A program made the translations under genes and the position numbers. Positions 2,878-17,183 of a stretch of 64,000 nucleotides of DNA are shown here, piece by piece (position 1 is the first letter of the stretch; the number at the start of each line of letters is the position of its first letter). This DNA comes from Candidatus Levyibacteriota bacterium (lineage in GTDB: Bacteria; Patescibacteriota; Microgenomatia; Levybacterales; UBA12049): NCBI GenBank assembly GCA_016186645.1, contig JACPLF010000005.1, forward strand, positions 33,257 through 97,256. Direction: 5' to 3'. The notes below the pieces were generated by a model, which saw nothing but the letters and a program-made list of their open reading frames with translations, had not been told where the DNA came from and ran no database searches.

Positions 2878-3867
2878 ATGAAAAATCCCATTATTGATTA
2901 CTTAGCCCATAATCAATTTCTTACTACTCTTATTGTTCTTGCTTTAATCTGGCTTGCAGCGGAATTAAGTGGAATACTAATTATAATTTTTATTTCCTAC
3001 ATTATAATGGCAGCTCTATCTCCATTTGCTGATTTTTTAATTAAAAAACGTATTCCTAGGATTTTGTCTGTATTAATTCCCTATACAACAACAATAGCGG
3101 TTTTAGTTTTACTTATTTTTCCATTAGTTCCTTTCTTTGCATCTCAAATAGAGATTCTTTTCAGTAATTTCCCAATATACATCAACCAGATAGCTAAGAC
3201 TTTTAATCTCGATATTAATGTTTCCAATGTCGATAATGTTTTCCAATCGGATATAAATACTATTGGAAAAAATGCCCTGAGCGTTACTGGCAAAATCTTT
3301 AGCGGAGCTTTCTCTATGCTTGCCGTGTTTGTTATAAGTTTTTATCTGATGCTTCAGCGGGAAATGCTGAAAGAGCAATTTATAGCTTTCTTCCCTAAGA
3401 AGTATCAAGAGAAAGTCCTGAAAACCGTAGCTCAAATTGAAAATAAAATTGGGCTATGGTTACGGGGACAGATGATCCTATCATTTACCATTGGCTTTAG
3501 CACTTGGGCTGGACTTACACTCTTAGGCCTTCCTTTTGCCCTGCCTCTTGGCTTATTAGCCGGAATATTGGAAATTGTGCCTACAATCGGACCTATCATT
3601 TCAGCTGTTCCGGCCATTATTGTCGCTCTAACTATCTCTCCTGGAGTTGCCTTATCCGTAGTGATTTTTTATATTTTACTGCAGATGGTGGAAAACAATA
3701 TTTTGGTACCAAAAATAATGCAAAAAGCTGTCGGGCTGAATCCAATCGTTGTAATTATCGGCGTTTTAATAGGGAGTAAATTTTTAGGAGTTCTAGGAGC
3801 TCTTCTGGCAGTTCCATTCATAGCAATGGTTTTAATTATTGCAAAAAGCTTCAAAAGCTCCAATTAA
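2878..3867 (+). CDS. AI-2E family transporter (PerM/UPF0118 membrane protein)
   Basis: 329 aa polytopic membrane protein. Conserved PTIGPIIS-like region typical of AI-2E transporters. Confidence 0.65.
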   Translation: MKNPIIDYLAHNQFLTTLIVLALIWLAAELSGILIIIFISYIIMAALSPFADFLIKKRIPRILSVLIPYTTTIAVLVLLIFPLVPFFASQIEILFSNFPIYINQIAKTFNLDINVSNVDNVFQSDINTIGKNALSVTGKIFSGAFSMLAVFVISFYLMLQREMLKEQFIAFFPKKYQEKVLKTVAQIENKIGLWLRGQMILSFTIGFSTWAGLTLLGLPFALPLGLLAGILEIVPTIGPIISAVPAIIVALTISPGVALSVVIFYILLQMVENNILVPKIMQKAVGLNPIVVIIGVLIGSKFLGVLGALLAVPFIAMVLIIAKSFKSSN

Positions 3868-3890
3868 ATAGCTTCGAATTGTTCTAAAAA

Positions 3891-3906
3891 ATGCATAAGT
3901 ATGCAT
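3891..3906. promoter_or_regulatory. Perfect dyad ATGCATA-AG-TATGCAT, candidate operator about 90 bp upstream of the arsR-family gene
   Basis: 16-bp inverted repeat. Near-identical copies at 9183-9198 and 16985-17000. Confidence 0.4.
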
Positions 3907-3994
3907 AATAGCAAAAAGAGAATTCGGTAAATAGAGTATAGCATAAACTTTCTGTTAATCTCCCCTTGACTTTAAAATATAAAATGTTTATTAT

Positions 3995-4321
3995 TTGAAC
4001 AGTCCTTCAAATACCATGAGTCAATATAAAAAAATTAAGAAAGAATTAAAAAATAAGAAAGAGCTGGTTGCTTGCGCACAACAACTGGGAGTTGTTGGTG
4101 ATACAACAAGACTCAAGATTTGTTACCTCCTTTGTCATTATCCCGAAGTTTCTGTTGGTGAAATGGCAGAAATCTTGGATACTTCTGTCTCCGTTGTTTC
4201 CCATAGCGTAAAAAAGCTTTTAGAGCTTGAGCTTGTTACTAGAAGAAAAGAGGCACAAACAGTTTATTACTCACTTACCGATAACAACTTTGTCAAAACC
4301 TTGAAAGGTTTTATTGTCTAG
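3995..4321 (+). CDS. ArsR/SmtB family metalloregulator (likely regulator of the downstream mer-like genes)
   Basis: Winged HTH region TRLKICYLL...VGEMAEILDTSVSVVSHSVKKL typical of ArsR family. Confidence 0.8.
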   Translation: MNSPSNTMSQYKKIKKELKNKKELVACAQQLGVVGDTTRLKICYLLCHYPEVSVGEMAEILDTSVSVVSHSVKKLLELELVTRRKEAQTVYYSLTDNNFVKTLKGFIV

Positions 4322-4327
4322 TTAAAT

Positions 4328-4888
4328 ATGAGATATAAAGAATTTTTAATTATAGGTTCAGTTTTACTCGTTGGCTTTGCCTTCTTTTTAAGCAGTAAAT
4401 CAGGTCTAGTATCAAACAATAAACAAGAATCCTCACAGGTTCTTTCTCAAGCTAACCCTTTACCGGCAACGCTTCTTGGCAAACAAGCTACAGACTTTAA
4501 ATTAACTACTCTTGATAATCAAGAATTTAAGTTAAACGATAAGAGGGGTAAAACAATTATTTTATTTGGGATGGCTGGGTGGTGCGGAACCTGCATACCC
4601 GAAGGAAGGGCTTTAACTCAAGTGCGTAAGGTTTATGCAGGTAGAGGAGTAGAAGTTATCGGGGTGGCATTTACCAAAGGAGACAATGAGGATTTCTTAA
4701 AAGAATTTAGGAATCTTGGAACGATTGACATTCCCTTAGCTTTAGACACAGATAACGTTGCTTCTAAATATCAGCTTGTTAAGTTGGAAACAACTTATAT
4801 CATAAATAAGGATGGTGTAATTGTTTACAAAGATGAAGGATTCACCAGTTATGAAGATTACAAAAGAGAATTGGATAAAATCATATGA
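4328..4888 (+). CDS. TlpA/ResA-like thiol-disulfide oxidoreductase (thioredoxin fold, N-terminal membrane anchor)
   Basis: WCGTC active-site motif. N-terminal TM helix. Redoxin fold length. Confidence 0.7.
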   Translation: MRYKEFLIIGSVLLVGFAFFLSSKSGLVSNNKQESSQVLSQANPLPATLLGKQATDFKLTTLDNQEFKLNDKRGKTIILFGMAGWCGTCIPEGRALTQVRKVYAGRGVEVIGVAFTKGDNEDFLKEFRNLGTIDIPLALDTDNVASKYQLVKLETTYIINKDGVIVYKDEGFTSYEDYKRELDKII

Positions 4889-5304
4889 AAGATAAAAAAG
4901 AACATTTAACAGGGATATCAGCAATTTGGGCAGTAATACTAGGGGTACTTTGTCCTTTATGTTTTATAGCACCATTACTTATCGCAGCTGGTTTGGGTTC
5001 AGTATTAGCTTTGGCAGTTCCTTGGTTTAAGCCTCTTCTTATTGTTTCATTAGTTATCGCAGTGGTAGCATTTGTCATTTCATTTAGATTACACAAAAAC
5101 GTATTGCCTCTAATTTCTGCTATTTTAGGCGGAGGTTTAATGTATTATGGTGGATATATCAGATTTGAGCAGAATTTAATTTATCTGGGAGGAATTTTAC
5201 TAATAGCTTCCGTTGGTTTAGATTGGTGGTTTAGAAGGCAAGTCAGAAATTGTTTGACTTGCAGAGTTAATCCCGGACATCATAAAGCAGTCAAGATATT
5301 ATGA
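4885..5304 (+). CDS. Small polytopic membrane protein with CPLC in TM1 and a C-terminal CLTC; MerT-like heavy-metal transporter candidate
   Basis: GVLCPLCFIAPLLIAAGLG resembles the MerT TM1 cysteine-pair region. Paralog follows immediately. 4-bp overlap with flanking genes. Confidence 0.4.
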   Translation: MKDKKEHLTGISAIWAVILGVLCPLCFIAPLLIAAGLGSVLALAVPWFKPLLIVSLVIAVVAFVISFRLHKNVLPLISAILGGGLMYYGGYIRFEQNLIYLGGILLIASVGLDWWFRRQVRNCLTCRVNPGHHKAVKIL

Positions 5305-5687
5305 AATTACTAACTAGGATACAGACAATTCTTTTACCAATACTCGGAGCGGGTGCAGTTGGGGTGTGTCCCTTATGTTGGATAGGTTCTGCCTCACTCT
5401 TAACTTACTTGGGACTCGGAGCAGTTATTCCAATTTGGAGGCAGCTTGCCTTTGGAATGTTATTTATAGCTGGGATAGGTTTTCTTCTAGACTTCCGTAG
5501 CCACAGAAACGTTATACCCCTAACCCTTCTCTTACTCGGCGGAATTCTTCTCTATGTTGGCCGATACATATTCCTAAGCACATGGGGAGCATGGCCAATT
5601 TGGGGAACAGGTGGATTGTTAATCCTTATAGCGGTAATCTACAACAAACAACTATTTAGGAGACAGAAAGATCATGGAACAATATGA
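5301..5687 (+). CDS. Paralogous CPLC membrane protein (MerT-like candidate)
   Basis: GVCPLCWIGSASLL motif in TM1. Same architecture as the preceding ORF. Confidence 0.4.
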   Translation: MKLLTRIQTILLPILGAGAVGVCPLCWIGSASLLTYLGLGAVIPIWRQLAFGMLFIAGIGFLLDFRSHRNVIPLTLLLLGGILLYVGRYIFLSTWGAWPIWGTGGLLILIAVIYNKQLFRRQKDHGTI

Positions 5688-5741
5688 TTTAACCATAATC
5701 GGCGGTGGAGCTGGGGCATTTGCTGTTGTAAATAGTATCGT

Positions 5742-6005
5742 TTGTCAAAGGCACAAAATATTATGATTAAACTAACTATTGTTCATATTAAAGATTGCAC
5801 TTGTTGCGAAAGCGTAATTAAAATCGCAAAGGAGCTCGCAAAGGAAATAAGCATTAAATTACAATTACAGGATTGGAATCAGTCCAAAAATTTAATAGAG
5901 AAAAACAAAATTGTTTCTTCGCCAGCGATTTTTATCAATGATAAGTTCGTTCACGCAGGAGAGCTTAGCAAAGAGGAGTTAAAAGATTTAATTAAAAAAA
6001 CATGA
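5742..6005 (+). CDS. Small thioredoxin-fold protein (Thioredoxin_3 / redox-active disulfide protein 2-like)
   Basis: 87 aa with a CTCC cysteine cluster. Conserved SSPAIFINDKFV...G C-terminal topology. Confidence 0.5.
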   Translation: MSKAQNIMIKLTIVHIKDCTCCESVIKIAKELAKEISIKLQLQDWNQSKNLIEKNKIVSSPAIFINDKFVHAGELSKEELKDLIKKT

Positions 6006-6040
6006 ACCCCGTTAGAAATTAAAAACGGGGCAATAAAATT

Positions 6041-6424
6041 ATGACTATACAAAATAAAATTTCTAACGGGGTGAATAAAACTCAAATTCAAATTTTATAT
6101 TTCCCAGATTGCCCAATTTATAAGGAACTGGAAAAACTTGTTCAAGAAACAATCAAAGAGCTTAAGATTAAAGCAAGTTTAGAATTGGTTAATATTCAGA
6201 CAAAAGAAGATGCCGAAAAATATCACTTTACAGGATCACCAGGACTTCTTATCAATGGAAAGAATATTGACTCATTAGCAAAAGATGCGCCGGTAGTCCT
6301 GAGAAGTTGCAAGATCTACCGAACAGAAGAAGGAATGAAGATGATGCCGACAAAAAAGATGGTTATAGAAGCACTCTTGGAGACAAGGAACAAAAATAAG
6401 TCTGTAGTTAAGGACTGTTGTTAA
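6041..6424 (+). CDS. Thioredoxin-fold protein, single-Cys CPIY variant
   Basis: FPDCPIYKELEKLV...TGSPGLLINGK resembles the preceding small thioredoxin-like protein. Confidence 0.4.
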   Translation: MTIQNKISNGVNKTQIQILYFPDCPIYKELEKLVQETIKELKIKASLELVNIQTKEDAEKYHFTGSPGLLINGKNIDSLAKDAPVVLRSCKIYRTEEGMKMMPTKKMVIEALLETRNKNKSVVKDCC

Positions 6425-6425
6425 T

Positions 6426-7565
6426 ATGGATAATGCAATTAAAAAAGATCGTTTTGGCCCTGAGTATGTGGTTAAAGTATATGATCCAAAGCTGGGGATG
6501 GAAGGGTTTTTGGTCATTGATAATACTGCTTTGGGTTCTGGTAAAGGCGGGATTAGGATGACTACCAATGTAAACGAAAAAGAGGTGAGACGACTTGCTC
6601 GTACAATGACTTGGAAAAATGCCCTAGCGGATATTCCTTTTGGTGGGGCAAAAGCGGGAATTATTTGGCCCGGAGGATCGGAAGAATTAAAAAAGCAATA
6701 CATTCAAAGTTTTGCTCGGTTAATCAAGATATTTACTCCTAAAAAATACATTGCCGGACCTGATGTCAATACCGGCGAGAAAGAAATGGCTTGGTTTGTG
6801 GAAGCAACAGGCGACTGGCGTTCGGCAACGGGGAAGCCTGCTGATTTGTGCATGAAAATTTTTGGCAAGCTCGGTGAGAAATGTGGCATTCCTCACGAAT
6901 TTGGCAGTACCGGATTTGGGGTGGCACATGCAGCAGTCGTTGCCCTACAGCTGCTTAATCTCGATATTAAAAAGTCTACTGTTGCTATTCATGGTTTTGG
7001 AAATGTGGGAACTTTCACCTATAAGTATTTGGCCTCAATGGGCGCTCGGATTGTGGCTCTTACCGATAGTAGTGGAGCAATTTACGACAAGGGTGGTTTT
7101 GAAAATAAAACAGTTGAGCGGTGGATTGAGGAGAGAAGGAAGCTTAAAGATTACCCATCGGGTGATAAAATTGATCCTTTGGATTTTTGGGGCTTGCCGG
7201 TGGATGTTCTAATCCCTGCCTCTGTGACAGATGTCATCAACAAGAGTAATAAAGATAGCATCAAAGCAAAAATAATTGTAGAGGCAGCCAATATTCCAAT
7301 GAGCGAAGACATTGAAAACGAACTTTTCAAAAGAGGGATTCTAATTATCCCCGACTTTATCGCCAATGCAGGCGGTGTTATCTCCTCATATGCAGAGTAT
7401 CGGGGATACAATCCAAAAAAGATGTTTGAACTGGTTGAGAAAAAGATCAAAAGAAATGTTAAACTGGTTTTAGAAGAAAGTATAAAAAAACATCGGAATT
7501 CTCGTGTCGTCGCGTTAGCATTAGCAAAATCAAGGATTATAAAAGAAATGAATAGGTCAAGGTAA
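6426..7565 (+). CDS. Glu/Leu/Phe/Val dehydrogenase family protein (size suggests Leu/Val-type)
   Basis: GGAKAG motif. GFGNVG NAD-binding motif. 379 aa. Confidence 0.75.
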   Translation: MDNAIKKDRFGPEYVVKVYDPKLGMEGFLVIDNTALGSGKGGIRMTTNVNEKEVRRLARTMTWKNALADIPFGGAKAGIIWPGGSEELKKQYIQSFARLIKIFTPKKYIAGPDVNTGEKEMAWFVEATGDWRSATGKPADLCMKIFGKLGEKCGIPHEFGSTGFGVAHAAVVALQLLNLDIKKSTVAIHGFGNVGTFTYKYLASMGARIVALTDSSGAIYDKGGFENKTVERWIEERRKLKDYPSGDKIDPLDFWGLPVDVLIPASVTDVINKSNKDSIKAKIIVEAANIPMSEDIENELFKRGILIIPDFIANAGGVISSYAEYRGYNPKKMFELVEKKIKRNVKLVLEESIKKHRNSRVVALALAKSRIIKEMNRSR

Positions 7566-7569
7566 AAAT

Positions 7570-9000
7570 ATGGAAGAATATGACTTGATTATTATCGGTG
7601 GAGGAGCGGGATCGTTTGCGGCTGCTATCAAGGCTAATGAGCTTGGCGCTAAAACCTTACTAATTAACAAAGTGTTACCGCTAGGCGGAACTTGCGTTAA
7701 TGTTGGCTGTGTTCCTTCTAAAACGCTTTTGTGGGCAGGAGAAGTGATGCACCTTGCCAAAAACCATAATATTCCGGGGATTGATATAGAAGTTAAAAAC
7801 TTTAATTTTGGCCAAGTCGTTCAGCATGAACTTGATCTAGTAGCAAAGTTAAGAGCTGAAAAATATGAGAAAGTCTTAAATGGTTTAGAAAATGTTACCC
7901 ACATAGAAGGTAGAGCTAGTTTTGTTTCCCCTAATGAAATTGAGGTTAATCCTTCGGCAAACTCAGGACAGGGTGGACAGAAATACACTTCTAAGAAATT
8001 TGTTATTGCCGCCGGATCAACAACTACAGTTCCACCGATTGAAGGTATTAAAGAGGTAGGATTTATAACTCATATTGAAGCCTTAAAATTTAAAGAACAG
8101 CCAAAAGAACTTATTATAGTTGGTGCAGGCCCTTTAGGCTTGGAATTTGCTCAAATGTATTCCAGATTTGGAACTAAAGTAACTATACTGCATAGAGGAT
8201 CATCTATTTTTCGGGGAGAAGAAGAACTAATCGCAAGACTTGCAGAAATACTAACACAAGAGGGAATTACTATTAAATTGAATGCTCGGGTAAAAAAGGC
8301 TTACAAAGAGGGAAATAAGAAAGTCTTAGTTTATAAGGAAGGAGACTTGTCCGCCGAAGCTTTAGCGAAGGCGGATGAAATACTACTCGCAACAGGTAAA
8401 ACTCCAAATACTCAAGAACTTAATCTTAACAAAGCAGGAGTAAATGTTGACGAAAAGCAAGCTATTAAAGTGACTTCGCAACTTCAAACTTCTCAACCAC
8501 ACATTTATGCAGTAGGTGATGTAATAAACTTACCTATAAGACAAGAACCAACAGCAGGCAGAGAAGGAACACTTGCTACAGAGAACGCCTTAAGTAATGC
8601 GCAAAATAGCATTGACTATAATACTGTTCCCTGGACTATCTTTACTGACCCGCAGCTTGCAGGAGTAGGGTTTACTGAAGAAGAGCAAATGAAAAGGTTC
8701 GACACTTGTATGTGTAAAACAGTATCGTTTAAAGATATTCCCAAAGCCATAATCATCAATCGAACCGAAGGACTGATTAAAATGGCAATTCATCCTGAAA
8801 CTAAACAGATTATGGGAGTGCATATCTTAGCTCCCAATGCAGGGGAACTAATTGCTCAAGCGATGGTACTTGTTAAAAATAAGAACACCATTGATGACGT
8901 CATAAATTCCTTACCGATGTTTCCCACACTCTCAGAAGCAATAAAAATTGTGGCCTTATCCTTCACTAAAGATATATCCAAGTTGAGCTGTTGTGTATAA
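7570..9000 (+). CDS. merA: Mercuric reductase MerA core (no NmerA domain)
   Basis: FAD site GGGAGS. Redox-active GGTCVNVGCVPSK. C-terminal vicinal cysteines ...KLSCCV, characteristic of MerA and distinguishing it from Lpd and glutathione reductase. Confidence 0.8.
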   Translation: MEEYDLIIIGGGAGSFAAAIKANELGAKTLLINKVLPLGGTCVNVGCVPSKTLLWAGEVMHLAKNHNIPGIDIEVKNFNFGQVVQHELDLVAKLRAEKYEKVLNGLENVTHIEGRASFVSPNEIEVNPSANSGQGGQKYTSKKFVIAAGSTTTVPPIEGIKEVGFITHIEALKFKEQPKELIIVGAGPLGLEFAQMYSRFGTKVTILHRGSSIFRGEEELIARLAEILTQEGITIKLNARVKKAYKEGNKKVLVYKEGDLSAEALAKADEILLATGKTPNTQELNLNKAGVNVDEKQAIKVTSQLQTSQPHIYAVGDVINLPIRQEPTAGREGTLATENALSNAQNSIDYNTVPWTIFTDPQLAGVGFTEEEQMKRFDTCMCKTVSFKDIPKAIIINRTEGLIKMAIHPETKQIMGVHILAPNAGELIAQAMVLVKNKNTIDDVINSLPMFPTLSEAIKIVALSFTKDISKLSCCV

Positions 9001-9215
9001 AAAATGACCTGTTCGTAACCTGTGTCGTAACCTGGAAGGTTGAACAGCTTCGCATCCTCCATATCCTCAAGAAAATCTGTATGGAGCTCCTGACGTGATC
9101 TTAGCCAGACTGCCAGAATTTTTCAAATTGTTCCATGAGAACGCTCTAACCTCTGATTTTATCTACTGTCTAGGCCTAAAAAATGTATAAGTATGCATAT
9201 CAGATTTTGGAACTT

Positions 9216-9674
9216 TTAGCTACCGAATTCACCCCTAGTTAAAATTATACCTTCAACAGTTTTTATTCTGTTAAAATCAGCTAACGGTAAAGTTTTTATC
9301 CATTTTCTACTAAAACCAAACTCTCTAAAGGTCGCGTCTGAGCCAATATGGATTTTTTGATCAGAATTAAGATCGTGAACGTATATCCAATCTAAATTAT
9401 CACTTGAATTAATTAACTTAAAGTTTTTATCATGGAAGGTTGGATCATAAATAGATTTCCAGTGTCTTATTTTTCTCTCATATTGTAATTTTCTGGCATA
9501 CTCAGATAGAATCTTAATTCCTCCAATTCCTGCAAGAATCGCACCAATACCAAGGCTAAAATTATAAAAAATTTGAGAGTAATTTATAATATTTTGAGAA
9601 GAAAATATTTGCATAATAAGTATTAAAATTAATAGATATAGCAATATTATTTCAATGACTGCTCTATATGTCAT
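9216..9674 (-). CDS. Hypothetical membrane-anchored protein
   Basis: N-terminal TM helices. No recognisable motif. Confidence 0.3.
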   Translation of the reverse strand: MTYRAVIEIILLYLLILILIMQIFSSQNIINYSQIFYNFSLGIGAILAGIGGIKILSEYARKLQYERKIRHWKSIYDPTFHDKNFKLINSSDNLDWIYVHDLNSDQKIHIGSDATFREFGFSRKWIKTLPLADFNRIKTVEGIILTRGEFGS

Positions 9675-10357: not shown

Positions 10358-10431
10358 TGGAGCGGGATAGGGGAGTCGAACCCCTCTTTTTTGCTTGGAA
10401 AGCAAATGTTGAACCGATCAACTAATCCCGC
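10358..10431 (-). tRNA. tRNA-Gly (anticodon TCC)
   Basis: Cloverleaf on minus strand. Anticodon loop TTTCCAA. 3' CCA encoded. Confidence 0.75.
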
Positions 10432-16928: not shown

Positions 16929-17183
16929 CAGATTGTTTCTATCTGACGGTCTTTTACCTAATTTAGTCTATGCTTTAGGTTAAAAATGTATAAGTATGCA
17001 TATTAGGAACTCGATCCTAGTGACAGAGATGAATTATCAATTATGATATCAATATTCGCCCCCTAACGGTAAGGCCTGTCCCGCCGAAGCCGTAAGGCGA
17101 AGGAGGATACTGTGAAAAGATTATAGCACAAATTTTCTGTTAATTTATGTTGTATAATCAAAGCAGTCAAAAGTTAAAACATT

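Follow-up and report, generated by a model that had tools for sequence, protein, structure and literature searches.

Gene content of the mer cluster

The 64 kb stretch of DNA analysed here (contig JACPLF010000005.1 of a Candidatus Levyibacteriota bacterium; hereafter the window) carries eight open reading frames (ORFs) that form one cluster on the + strand at 3966-9000, with junctions of -4 to +75 nt. The encoded proteins are, in order, ArsR, a TlpA-like redoxin, two MerC-family membrane proteins (MerC1 and MerC2), a Thioredoxin_3 protein (Trx3), a DF-family protein (DF), a glutamate dehydrogenase-like protein (GDH-like) and the mercuric reductase MerA, and it is highly probable that the locus is an Hg(II) resistance operon. 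Inspection of the ORFs bears out the eight genes, the orientation and the order given in a preliminary description of this DNA; the packing is tight, as it noted, and 4-bp overlaps are seen at 4885-4888 and 5301-5304 only, the other junctions being gaps of 1-75 nt. MerA is 100% identical to a protein from a Candidatus Levybacteria metagenome-assembled genome, and the earlier guess of a host from the candidate phyla radiation (CPR) is therefore right. The host is a very small groundwater bacterium that has not been cultured. The features of the cluster are listed below.

3966-3994, + strand: operon promoter, sigma-70-like, TTGACT-17-TATTAT
3992-4013, + strand: candidate ArsR operator, TATTTGAA-N6-TTCAAATA, over the -10 box and the probable start of transcription
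4016-4321, + strand: arsR, ArsR/SmtB metalloregulator of 101 aa with Cys20, Cys36 and Cys40
4328-4888, + strand: TlpA/ResA-like redoxin of 186 aa, anchor at residues 3-26, WCGTC (Cys86/Cys89)
4885-5304, + strand: merC-like 1, 139 aa, about four transmembrane (TM) segments, CPLC (Cys23/26) in TM1 and CLTC (Cys123/126) in the tail
5301-5687, + strand: merC-like 2, 128 aa, CPLC in TM1, tail without cysteines
5763-6005, + strand: Trx3, soluble Thioredoxin_3 protein of 80 aa with a CxCC motif (CTCC)
6041-6424, + strand: DF-family thioredoxin-fold protein of 127 aa with Cys24 (CPxY), Cys90 (CRxY-type) and a terminal Cys126-Cys127
6426-7565, + strand: GDH-like ELFV dehydrogenase of 379 aa
7570-9000, + strand: merA, core-only mercuric reductase of 476 aa with Cys42/47, Tyr99, Phe451, Cys474/475 and Cys380-x-Cys382

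The last gene encodes a bona fide MerA, for which Hg(II) reduction is predicted from the sequence. It scores 493.1 bits against the NCBIfam equivalog model TIGR02053 (cut-off 454.45) and 367.4 bits against the lipoamide dehydrogenase (Lpd) model, which lies under the cut-off of that model (408.8). The closest solved structures are the MerAs of Metallosphaera sedula (4ywo, 320 bits), Lysinibacillus (307 bits) and Tn501 (270 bits), and the best dihydrolipoamide dehydrogenase structure stays behind all three with 249 bits at most. The preliminary description had called this protein a MerA and had named grouping with dihydrolipoamide dehydrogenases as a sign of another function; the identity holds, since the equivalog cut-off is passed, every signature residue is present and the top solved relatives are MerAs, and no such grouping is seen in the scores. 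The redox pair Cys42/Cys47 lies within GGTCVNVGCVPSK (Cys207/212 in Bacillus numbering), the vicinal pair Cys474/Cys475 (Cys628/629) lies in the C-terminal KLSCCV, and Tyr99 aligns to the conserved Tyr264. Both the redox motif and the C-terminal pair are found in 120/120 of the closest database sequences (75-83% identity), and Phe451 (MFPTLSE), which aligns to the Tyr at position 605 of Lysinibacillus MerA and represents the archaeal form, is found in 119/120. Christakis, Barkay and Boyd used the redox Cys pair, the Tyr, Tyr/Phe605 and the C-terminal vicinal Cys to screen for MerA (PMC8261052), and all four signatures are found in the window MerA. The named sources among the 120 homologs are mostly Microgenomates lineages (Levy-, Gottesman-, Davies-, Woese- and Blackburnbacteria).

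Lpd and glutathione reductase (GR) enzymes use a catalytic His within a HAHPT(L)SE-type motif. Phe451 occupies the place of this His in the window MerA and ordinary disulfide-reductase chemistry is therefore disfavoured. No match to the HMA/NmerA domain (PF00403, GMTCxxC) is found in MerA, in line with the earlier statement that NmerA is missing; the protein opens at the FAD-binding GxGxxG, and the upstream gene stops 4 nt ahead of the merA start codon. An extra Cys-x-Cys is present at MerA residues 380-382 (window 8707-8715). It reads CMC, CLC or CAC in 120/120 CPR homologs, is not found in the aligned Metallosphaera and Lysinibacillus MerAs, and might serve as a third site of contact with the metal or with a partner.

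The regulator passes the cut-offs of NF033788 (64.6, cut-off 55) and PF01022 (34.2, cut-off 22). We compared the cluster with 47 species-representative MerA loci from a GTDB genome scan and with several metagenome contigs (individual loci and contigs are numbered with L). arsR lies directly upstream of merA or heads the cluster in most of these related loci, and Cys20/36/40 are kept in most MerA-linked ArsRs; the assignment of an ArsR regulator to a mer locus is thus upheld by both its profile and its recurrence. ArsR-type mer repressors are known from Sulfolobus solfataricus and Streptomyces lividans and were found in ~8% of mer operons (PMC3466566). As judged from the sequence, translation of ArsR most likely begins at ATG 4016 and not at TTG 3995, given that the relatives conserve 3992-4013 as DNA of the promoter/operator region; the N-terminal peptide 'YYLNNRSNTM' of long ArsR ORF calls is this conserved DNA in translation. 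TTGACT-17-TATTAT is the best promoter match across 3700-9400 (10/12), and an equivalent promoter, TTGACA-17-TATTAT, is present in L065. The arms of the operator candidate are 8 nt long and 100% complementary. Its inner pattern, TTTGAA-N6-TTCAAA, has a single occurrence in the 64 kb window, where 0.11 would be expected, and is found just upstream of the merA-cluster arsR in 18 loci (16 distinct) and in a Roizmanbacteria genome, usually as the sole copy. The TGAA-N6-TTCA repeat over -10/+1, kept in at least 17 related loci, is our best operator candidate, with ArsR binding predicted. A second TTTGAA-N6-TTCAAA copy is located directly before merA at 7975-7992 of L001/L031, a Levybacteria locus, besides the arsR copy, which suggests a second regulated promoter there.

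The two CPLC proteins are MerC-like; their similarity to MerC is remote and Hg(II) uptake is predicted. They are paralogs with 41% identity. MerC1 reaches 34.6 bits against PF03203 (MerC; gathering score 27.6), and PF03203 matches 8/8 aligned family members from the window and the related loci with a best E-value of 6e-11. The hydropathy profile shows ~4 hydrophobic segments and, as described earlier, CPLC (residues 23-26) lies inside the first of them in both proteins. The tail pair of MerC1 is conserved in L014, L017, L024 and L053, and CLSC, CLEC or CCEDC is found in relatives. Tn21 MerC has about four TM segments, a CxxC in TM1 and a cytoplasmic C-terminal Cys pair. The MerT-like identity proposed in the preliminary description is rejected in favour of the MerC family, as neither protein matches MerT (PF02411) at E <= 0.1 and their motif is CPLC, not a vicinal CC. 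The TlpA-like redoxin matches PF00578 (71.6 bits) and PF08534 (61.0 bits) and is predicted to face outward. ResA is its nearest named relative, and it misses the cut-offs of the ResA, DsbE and TlpA equivalog models, that of ResA by a wide margin.

The Trx3-DF pair, related loci and neighbouring elements

Both motifs noted earlier in the two small proteins, CTCC and CPIY, are present. For the CTCC protein, ATG 5763 is the most probable start, in agreement with its NCBI record and with its homologs. It matches PF13192 with 48.2 bits (cut-off 24.8) and TIGR00412 with 31.5 bits, under the cut-off of 62, and CTCC is kept by all inspected homologs. Its identification as SaoT was considered and rejected (NF040730, 19.6 bits against a cut-off of 65). 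The second protein passes the model NF049942, 'DF family (seleno)protein', with 87.5 bits (cut-off 70); a 2026 review gives this family no more than the name 'hypothetical protein DF'. An exhaustive profile-free search gave 934 cluster representatives of the DF family at 50% identity. Conservation was analysed in 151 sequences, namely the query and the best 150 of the 934 representatives, and Cys24 was found in 150, Pro25 in 146, GSP in 149-150, Cys90 in 146 and the Arg in 149 of them. The motifs Cys24-Pro, Phe-x-Gly-Ser-Pro and Cys90-Arg-x-Tyr are thus near-invariant. Close DF homologs carry Cys24, Cys90 and a Cys-Cys pair that lies <=2 residues from the C-terminus. The AlphaFold model of DF (pLDDT 73.5) shows a thioredoxin fold to which a C-terminal helix is added, and the Cys-Cys tail is disordered in it.

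Together, the genes of Trx3 and DF make up a conserved module, usually with an overlap of a few bases, and Trx3 precedes DF in every close-DF contig having upstream DNA. The arrangement ArsR-MerT/HMA-Trx3-DF-MerA is present in a complete Candidatus Roizmanbacteria genome (CP066689.1) and in two contigs, with the same promoter/operator. L053 matches the window in the order MerC1-MerC2-Trx3-DF-GDH-MerA, and in L054 and L069 MerA is located within 3-5 kb of Trx3-DF. A scan of 20 longer DF representatives revealed fusions of distant DF domains to MerB (P0214, P0276 and P0320; 3/20), to MerT-HMA (P0333) and to Trx_3 (P0196); P0328 resembles a DF-MerT fusion less clearly. A CC follows right after the DF domain in both P0333 and P0196, similar to the tail of the window DF. 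The link of thioredoxin-fold proteins to mer genes, which the preliminary description had suggested, is therefore borne out by the Roizmanbacteria arrangement and by the fusions to MerB and MerT-HMA.

Two observations were made on standalone DF genes. DF proteins of ~100 aa encoded on actinobacterial plasmids, in L074 (5004-5312) and L075 (4995-5288), are annotated 'alkylmercury lyase' and have no MerB domain; the label was probably carried over from DF-MerB fusions. On the actinobacterial plasmids L075 (4542-6719) and L076 (4506-6893), a MerR-type regulator is divergent from a DF-like gene that is followed by a 450-aa GR-like flavoprotein. This flavoprotein scores 268-271 bits against the MerA cut-off of 454 and is without a C-terminal extension, and the L075 unit has recombinase and transposase genes on its flanks.

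The GDH-like protein contains PF00208 (169 bits) and PF02812 (93 bits) and is closest, among solved structures, to Thermotoga/Thermococcales GDH (192 bits; leucine dehydrogenase ~97). It stays under all equivalog cut-offs (for example 225 against 750), and its N-terminus is ~28 residues shorter than that of Thermotoga GDH. The view that this dehydrogenase is unrelated to the cluster does not hold, as its linkage to Trx3-DF recurs: its position is kept in L053, and it adjoins Trx3-DF in L055 and L069. A fusion of glucose-6-phosphate and 6-phosphogluconate dehydrogenases and a 2-hydroxyacid dehydrogenase are found as other neighbours of Trx3-DF. NAD(P)H formation would be the common theme of these dehydrogenases, and the GDH-like protein may supply reducing power.

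The constant part of the related loci is arsR and merA, with the other genes between and around these two varying module by module. Many relatives contain arsR-merA alone. Other variants are arsR-MerT/HMA-MFS-merA; a CsoR-cupredoxin-CopA unit followed by arsR-merA-DsbD_2/cupredoxin-HMA; arsR-TlpA-MerC1-merA (L014, L017 and L024); MerC2 directly before merA (L011, L050 and L051); arsR, a Cys-rich pair without a Pfam match, and merA (L002, L005, L019 and L029); and, in L001, arsR, a 69-aa CC peptide, TlpA, a CcdA-like protein, a 173-aa CxxC membrane protein and merA. Known mer transporters occupy the MerC position in L003 and L065 (MerT/HMA) and in L055 (MerE). Since the loci are modular in this way and carry recognised mer and copper genes in equivalent places, a resistance island fits the locus, not a housekeeping redox enzyme. 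Trx3/DF was found in 0/47 of the GTDB species-representative MerA loci.

Some further features of the relatives deserve mention. The Cys-rich pair, seen in L002 (5858-7940), L053 (3898-5990), L005, L019 and L029 either between arsR and merA or after merA, consists of a ~210-aa exported protein (CC, CCC) and a membrane protein of ~490 aa whose CPVC lies in a TM segment. Neither protein has a Pfam match, and the pair is a candidate for novel Hg transport components. Dual-specificity-phosphatase-like proteins with HCxxGxGR lie near mer or Trx3-DF genes in L069 (9088-9975), L055 (2218-2691), L006 (729-1229), L054 (7021-7482) and L068 (7528-7986); some of them end in Cys-Cys (QSCCV, ECC), and in L069 the phosphatase-like domain is fused to a MerC2-like membrane domain. 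Eleven species-representative contigs of the GTDB scan titled 'uncultured Gammaproteobacteria bacterium' (L005, L006, L014, L018, L020, L021, L026, L030, L035, L044 and L045) encode MerAs 70-83% identical to the Levybacteria MerA in CPR-like contexts, and these titles look mislabelled. The Roizmanbacteria mer operon of L065 (1570-7066) lies by GIY-YIG, Zn-ribbon recombinase-like and 695-aa MerR-family/DUF7380 proteins, which hints at an island or defence context.

A repeated intergenic element is present at three sites of the window.

3887-3908, + strand: repeat copy 1, core AAAAATGYATAAGTATGCATA, an 11-2-11 inverted repeat that holds the dyad 3891-3906
9179-9200, + strand: repeat copy 2, after the merA stop and before the convergent gene downstream
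16982-17003, + strand: repeat copy 3

The dyad 3891-3906 (ATGCATA-2-TATGCAT), proposed earlier as a site for ArsR binding, does exist. It lies ~60 bp upstream of the -35 box within the repeated element and is unlikely to be the mer operator, given its three sites in the window, the copies between convergent genes and its absence from most related mer loci. The whole element is ~45 nt long (TTAGTCTAT..TTTAGGTCTAAAAAATGYATAAGTATGCATATTAG), and the three same-strand copies compare with 0 expected by chance. Two further copies are found in L029 (5319-5340, upstream of arsR) and L026 (10351-10372, downstream of merA). All five known copies are on the merA strand and 2/5 lie between convergent genes; window copies 1 and 2 flank the mer cluster exactly. 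As an RNA the element matches nothing in Rfam and shows no more folding signal than shuffled sequences. It could mark the edge of a cassette or be bound by some other regulator. The surroundings of the cluster in the window are housekeeping genes and tRNAs, and neither an integrase nor a transposase was seen among them. tRNA-His and tRNA-Arg are located upstream (2596-2758) and tRNA-Gly downstream (10358-10431) of an AI-2E transporter and the mer region; a 57-aa ORF at 2594-2767 is merely the antisense of tRNA-His/tRNA-Arg.

Proposed route of mercury and competing explanations

Taken together, the best explanation is an ArsR-repressed Hg(II) resistance operon of Candidatus Levybacteria (Microgenomates, CPR) that includes a Trx3/DF relay, and we regard this explanation as a likely one. 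By analogy with Sulfolobus solfataricus and Streptomyces lividans, an ArsR dimer would occupy the operator when Hg(II) is missing, and binding of Hg(II) to the three Cys would lead to its release. Following the precedent of MerC and the homology to it, the MerC pair would move Hg(II) over the membrane via the TM1 CPLC, and MerC1 would pass it to its cytoplasmic CLTC tail. The TlpA-like ectodomain (WCGTC) might capture outside Hg(II) in place of MerP, or might keep outward thiols reduced. In the cytosol, Trx3 (CTCC) and DF (Cys24, Cys90 and Cys-Cys) could pick up Hg(II) at the transporter and at damaged thiols and could hand it to Cys474/Cys475 of MerA, so that the job done in cis by NmerA would be done in trans. 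MerA would then use NAD(P)H to convert Hg(II) into volatile Hg(0), and the GDH-like protein might help to regenerate this NAD(P)H, metabolism being very limited. For the part of this scheme that concerns a specific Hg(II) relay by Trx3 and DF, we put the chances at slightly below even.

Several observations weigh against this explanation. MerC2 alone reaches only 20.1 bits against PF03203, under the cut-off of 27.6, and tblastn of MerC1 against 72,556 plasmids gave no match even at E <= 1; the MerC assignment is therefore by profile only. The C-terminal CC of DF is a subgroup trait, present in 5/151 representatives. A metallochaperone fold, ArsD-like or other, received no support for DF, since Foldseek gives generic thioredoxins with TM-scores of 0.4-0.5. 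Trx3-DF is without MerA in view in L052, L055 and L068, which are short contigs and which carry MerE, TlpA-like, CcdA-like and CxxC membrane proteins. DUF2703, a related fold in a Rhodococcus ars cluster, was read as a plain thioredoxin for ArsC (PMC6514093). Finally, where DF genes stand alone on actinobacterial plasmids, their surroundings are arsenic or mixed-metal islands or non-canonical flavoprotein reductases, and the DF family is therefore not mercury-specific; it is tied to thiophilic metal(loid) resistance generally.

These observations bring in a different explanation, in which the mer core is the same and TlpA, Trx3, DF and GDH serve thiol-redox maintenance and not a metal relay. 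Their task would be to return disulfides to the reduced state and to repair thiols that Hg stress has oxidised or blocked, inside and outside the cell, with NAD(P)H from GDH going to a reductase encoded elsewhere. It draws on the location of TlpA-like genes by CcdA/DsbD-like proteins in L001, L055 and L068, as in a classical outward reducing pathway, on the DF-family/DUF2703 relatives beside ArsC and TrxB in arsenic islands, on the NAD(P)H-forming dehydrogenases that accompany Trx3-DF even where MerA is not in view, and on the resemblance of the DF model to ordinary thioredoxins. However, DF has no CxxC (its CPxY is paired with the distant Cys90), and Trx3 carries the rare, Cys-overloaded CxCC, a form taken to indicate heavy-metal contact over ordinary disulfide exchange (Haft and Gwadz). 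The C-terminal Cys-Cys is, as in MerA, an Hg-handling feature, and the DF-MerB and DF-MerT-HMA fusions suit metal hand-off better than housekeeping reduction. In addition, a motif search of the 64 kb window alone found neither a thioredoxin reductase nor a classical WCGPC thioredoxin, the rest of the genome being a possible place for a reductase. We consider redox maintenance a rather unlikely role for the accessory set.

The gene order could also be read as a full electron path, from dehydrogenase through flavoprotein, two thioredoxin folds and CxxC membrane proteins to the ecto-redoxin. The flavoprotein would then be mainly an NADPH-dependent reductase of DF/Trx3, like a high-Mr thioredoxin reductase with a Cys-Cys shuttle, and electrons would pass on via the CxxC membrane proteins to the TlpA-like protein in a GDH-fuelled transmembrane reducing pathway. 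The actinobacterial plasmids, where DF-like genes pair with non-MerA GR-like reductases (268-271 against 454) and a metal-responsive regulator, and the clade-specific extra CxC in 120/120 CPR MerAs are consistent with this. We find it highly improbable, since the enzyme passes the equivalog cut-off with every MerA signature, has Phe451 in place of the disulfide-reductase active-site His, and is surrounded in relatives by MerT/HMA, MerE, copper ATPases and HMA proteins; many relatives have arsR-merA without Trx3/DF, and the membrane proteins match MerC, not CcdA/DsbD. It is improbable, too, that two unrelated units are present, with Trx3-DF-GDH inserted between merC2 and merA and co-transcribed by accident. 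The widest intergenic gap (54-75 nt) does lie right before Trx3, some contigs carry Trx3-DF without an adjacent MerA, and the pair is missing from all 47 species-representative MerA loci. Against this, the insertion point upstream of merA is identical in two architectures (the window and L053; L065-L067), the merA-side gaps are 1 nt and 4 nt, no terminator and no promoter above chance was found around the block, and the DF fusions to MerB and MerT in other phyla are independent evidence of a link. Looking beyond the window, we tentatively propose that DF and the CxCC Thioredoxin_3 protein represent an unrecognised mercury-resistance part of CPR bacteria and Actinobacteria, a trans hand-off that would replace NmerA/MerP for a core-only MerA and perhaps serve MerB.

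Comparison with known systems and significance

The arsR/merR-merH-merA operon of Sulfolobus solfataricus and the ArsR-MerT/P-MerA operon of Gelidibacter salicanalis resemble the window in having ArsR co-directional with merA and no NmerA. The window MerA also shares the archaeal Phe, and its ...LSCCV end matches Metallosphaera MerA; it keeps the C-terminal Cys pair, unlike GbsMerA. In contrast to these ArsR operons, the window has two MerC-family transporters in place of TRASH/MerH or MerT/P, and it adds TlpA-like, Trx3, DF and GDH genes that appear in no description we found of them. The logic shared with Tn21/Tn501 mer (MerR-MerT-MerP-MerC-MerA-MerD) is sensing, paired-Cys import, hand-off to the MerA Cys pair and NADPH reduction, and the importer is likewise of the MerC family, with a TM1 CxxC and a cytoplasmic Cys pair. 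The window differs in having ArsR instead of MerR and in being without MerT, MerP, MerD and NmerA. In 2012, merC was known from beta- and gamma-proteobacterial operons only, with a negative correlation with arsR (PMC3466566).

The role proposed for Trx3/DF is similar to that of NmerA/MerP, as soluble Cys acceptors between the transporter and the MerA core. Trx3 and DF are, however, separate polypeptides with a predicted thioredoxin fold, whereas NmerA/MerP have a ferredoxin-like HMA fold, and the motifs are CxCC in Trx3 and CPxY, Cys90 and a C-terminal CC in DF against GMTCxxC in NmerA/MerP. SaoT of the SAO organometallic system is, like Trx3, a small MJ0307/MTH895-like thioredoxin fold with the rare CxCC, and has been proposed to touch a mercury-like metal (Haft and Gwadz). 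Trx3 differs from it in its mer context, which is not the nine-gene SAO locus, and in having no selenocysteine. The window also resembles Thermus thermophilus mer in placing a redox-supporting metabolic enzyme in the operon, a GDH-like protein (presumably for NAD(P)H) against homocysteine synthase. In that organism a thiol-metabolism gene is reportedly co-transcribed with merA (oah2-merR-merA, said to be the work of Norambuena et al. in 2018).

For a CPR genome to carry a mer operon is nothing new per se. MerA of CPR bacteria has been placed in Group B clades K12-K14, sister to the MerAs of Thermococci/Archaeoglobi, with Daviesbacteria, Gottesmanbacteria, Blackburnbacteria, Roizmanbacteria, Microgenomates and others as hosts, according to Christakis, Barkay and Boyd 2021 (PMC8261052). 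The window MerA, whose closest homologs bear the same phylum names, belongs to the lineage of this clade, and the statement in the preliminary description that metal-resistance loci of CPR bacteria are little described does not stand beside that catalogue. The passages of PMC8261052 consulted here deal with MerA and MerB; flanking genes, an ArsR operator and Trx-fold partners were not seen in them. The ArsR-MerT/P-MerA order has been published as well (PMC10587081). CPR MerA with its archaeal affinity, ArsR-controlled mer operons and this gene order are thus already in print. We found no literature description of a thioredoxin-like mer component or of CPR mer operon structure, our coverage of the literature being incomplete. 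The features not found described are the accessory set, the conserved operator, the combination of MerC with an archaeal-type MerA under ArsR control and, most of all, the Trx3-DF module and its ties to MerA, MerT and MerB.

Core-only MerAs, with no metal-binding domain at the N-terminus, are common among Archaea, Actinobacteria and CPR bacteria. The path of Hg(II) to their active site in cells without glutathione is an unsettled question, and Trx3 and DF are a concrete candidate for this delivery, genetically tied to MerA, MerT and MerB. The cluster also gives a first functional context to the large, uncharacterised DF family. A mercury island that is modular and has a conserved candidate operator for ArsR is present in very small CPR genomes, and it aids the reading of mercury cycling from groundwater metagenomes.

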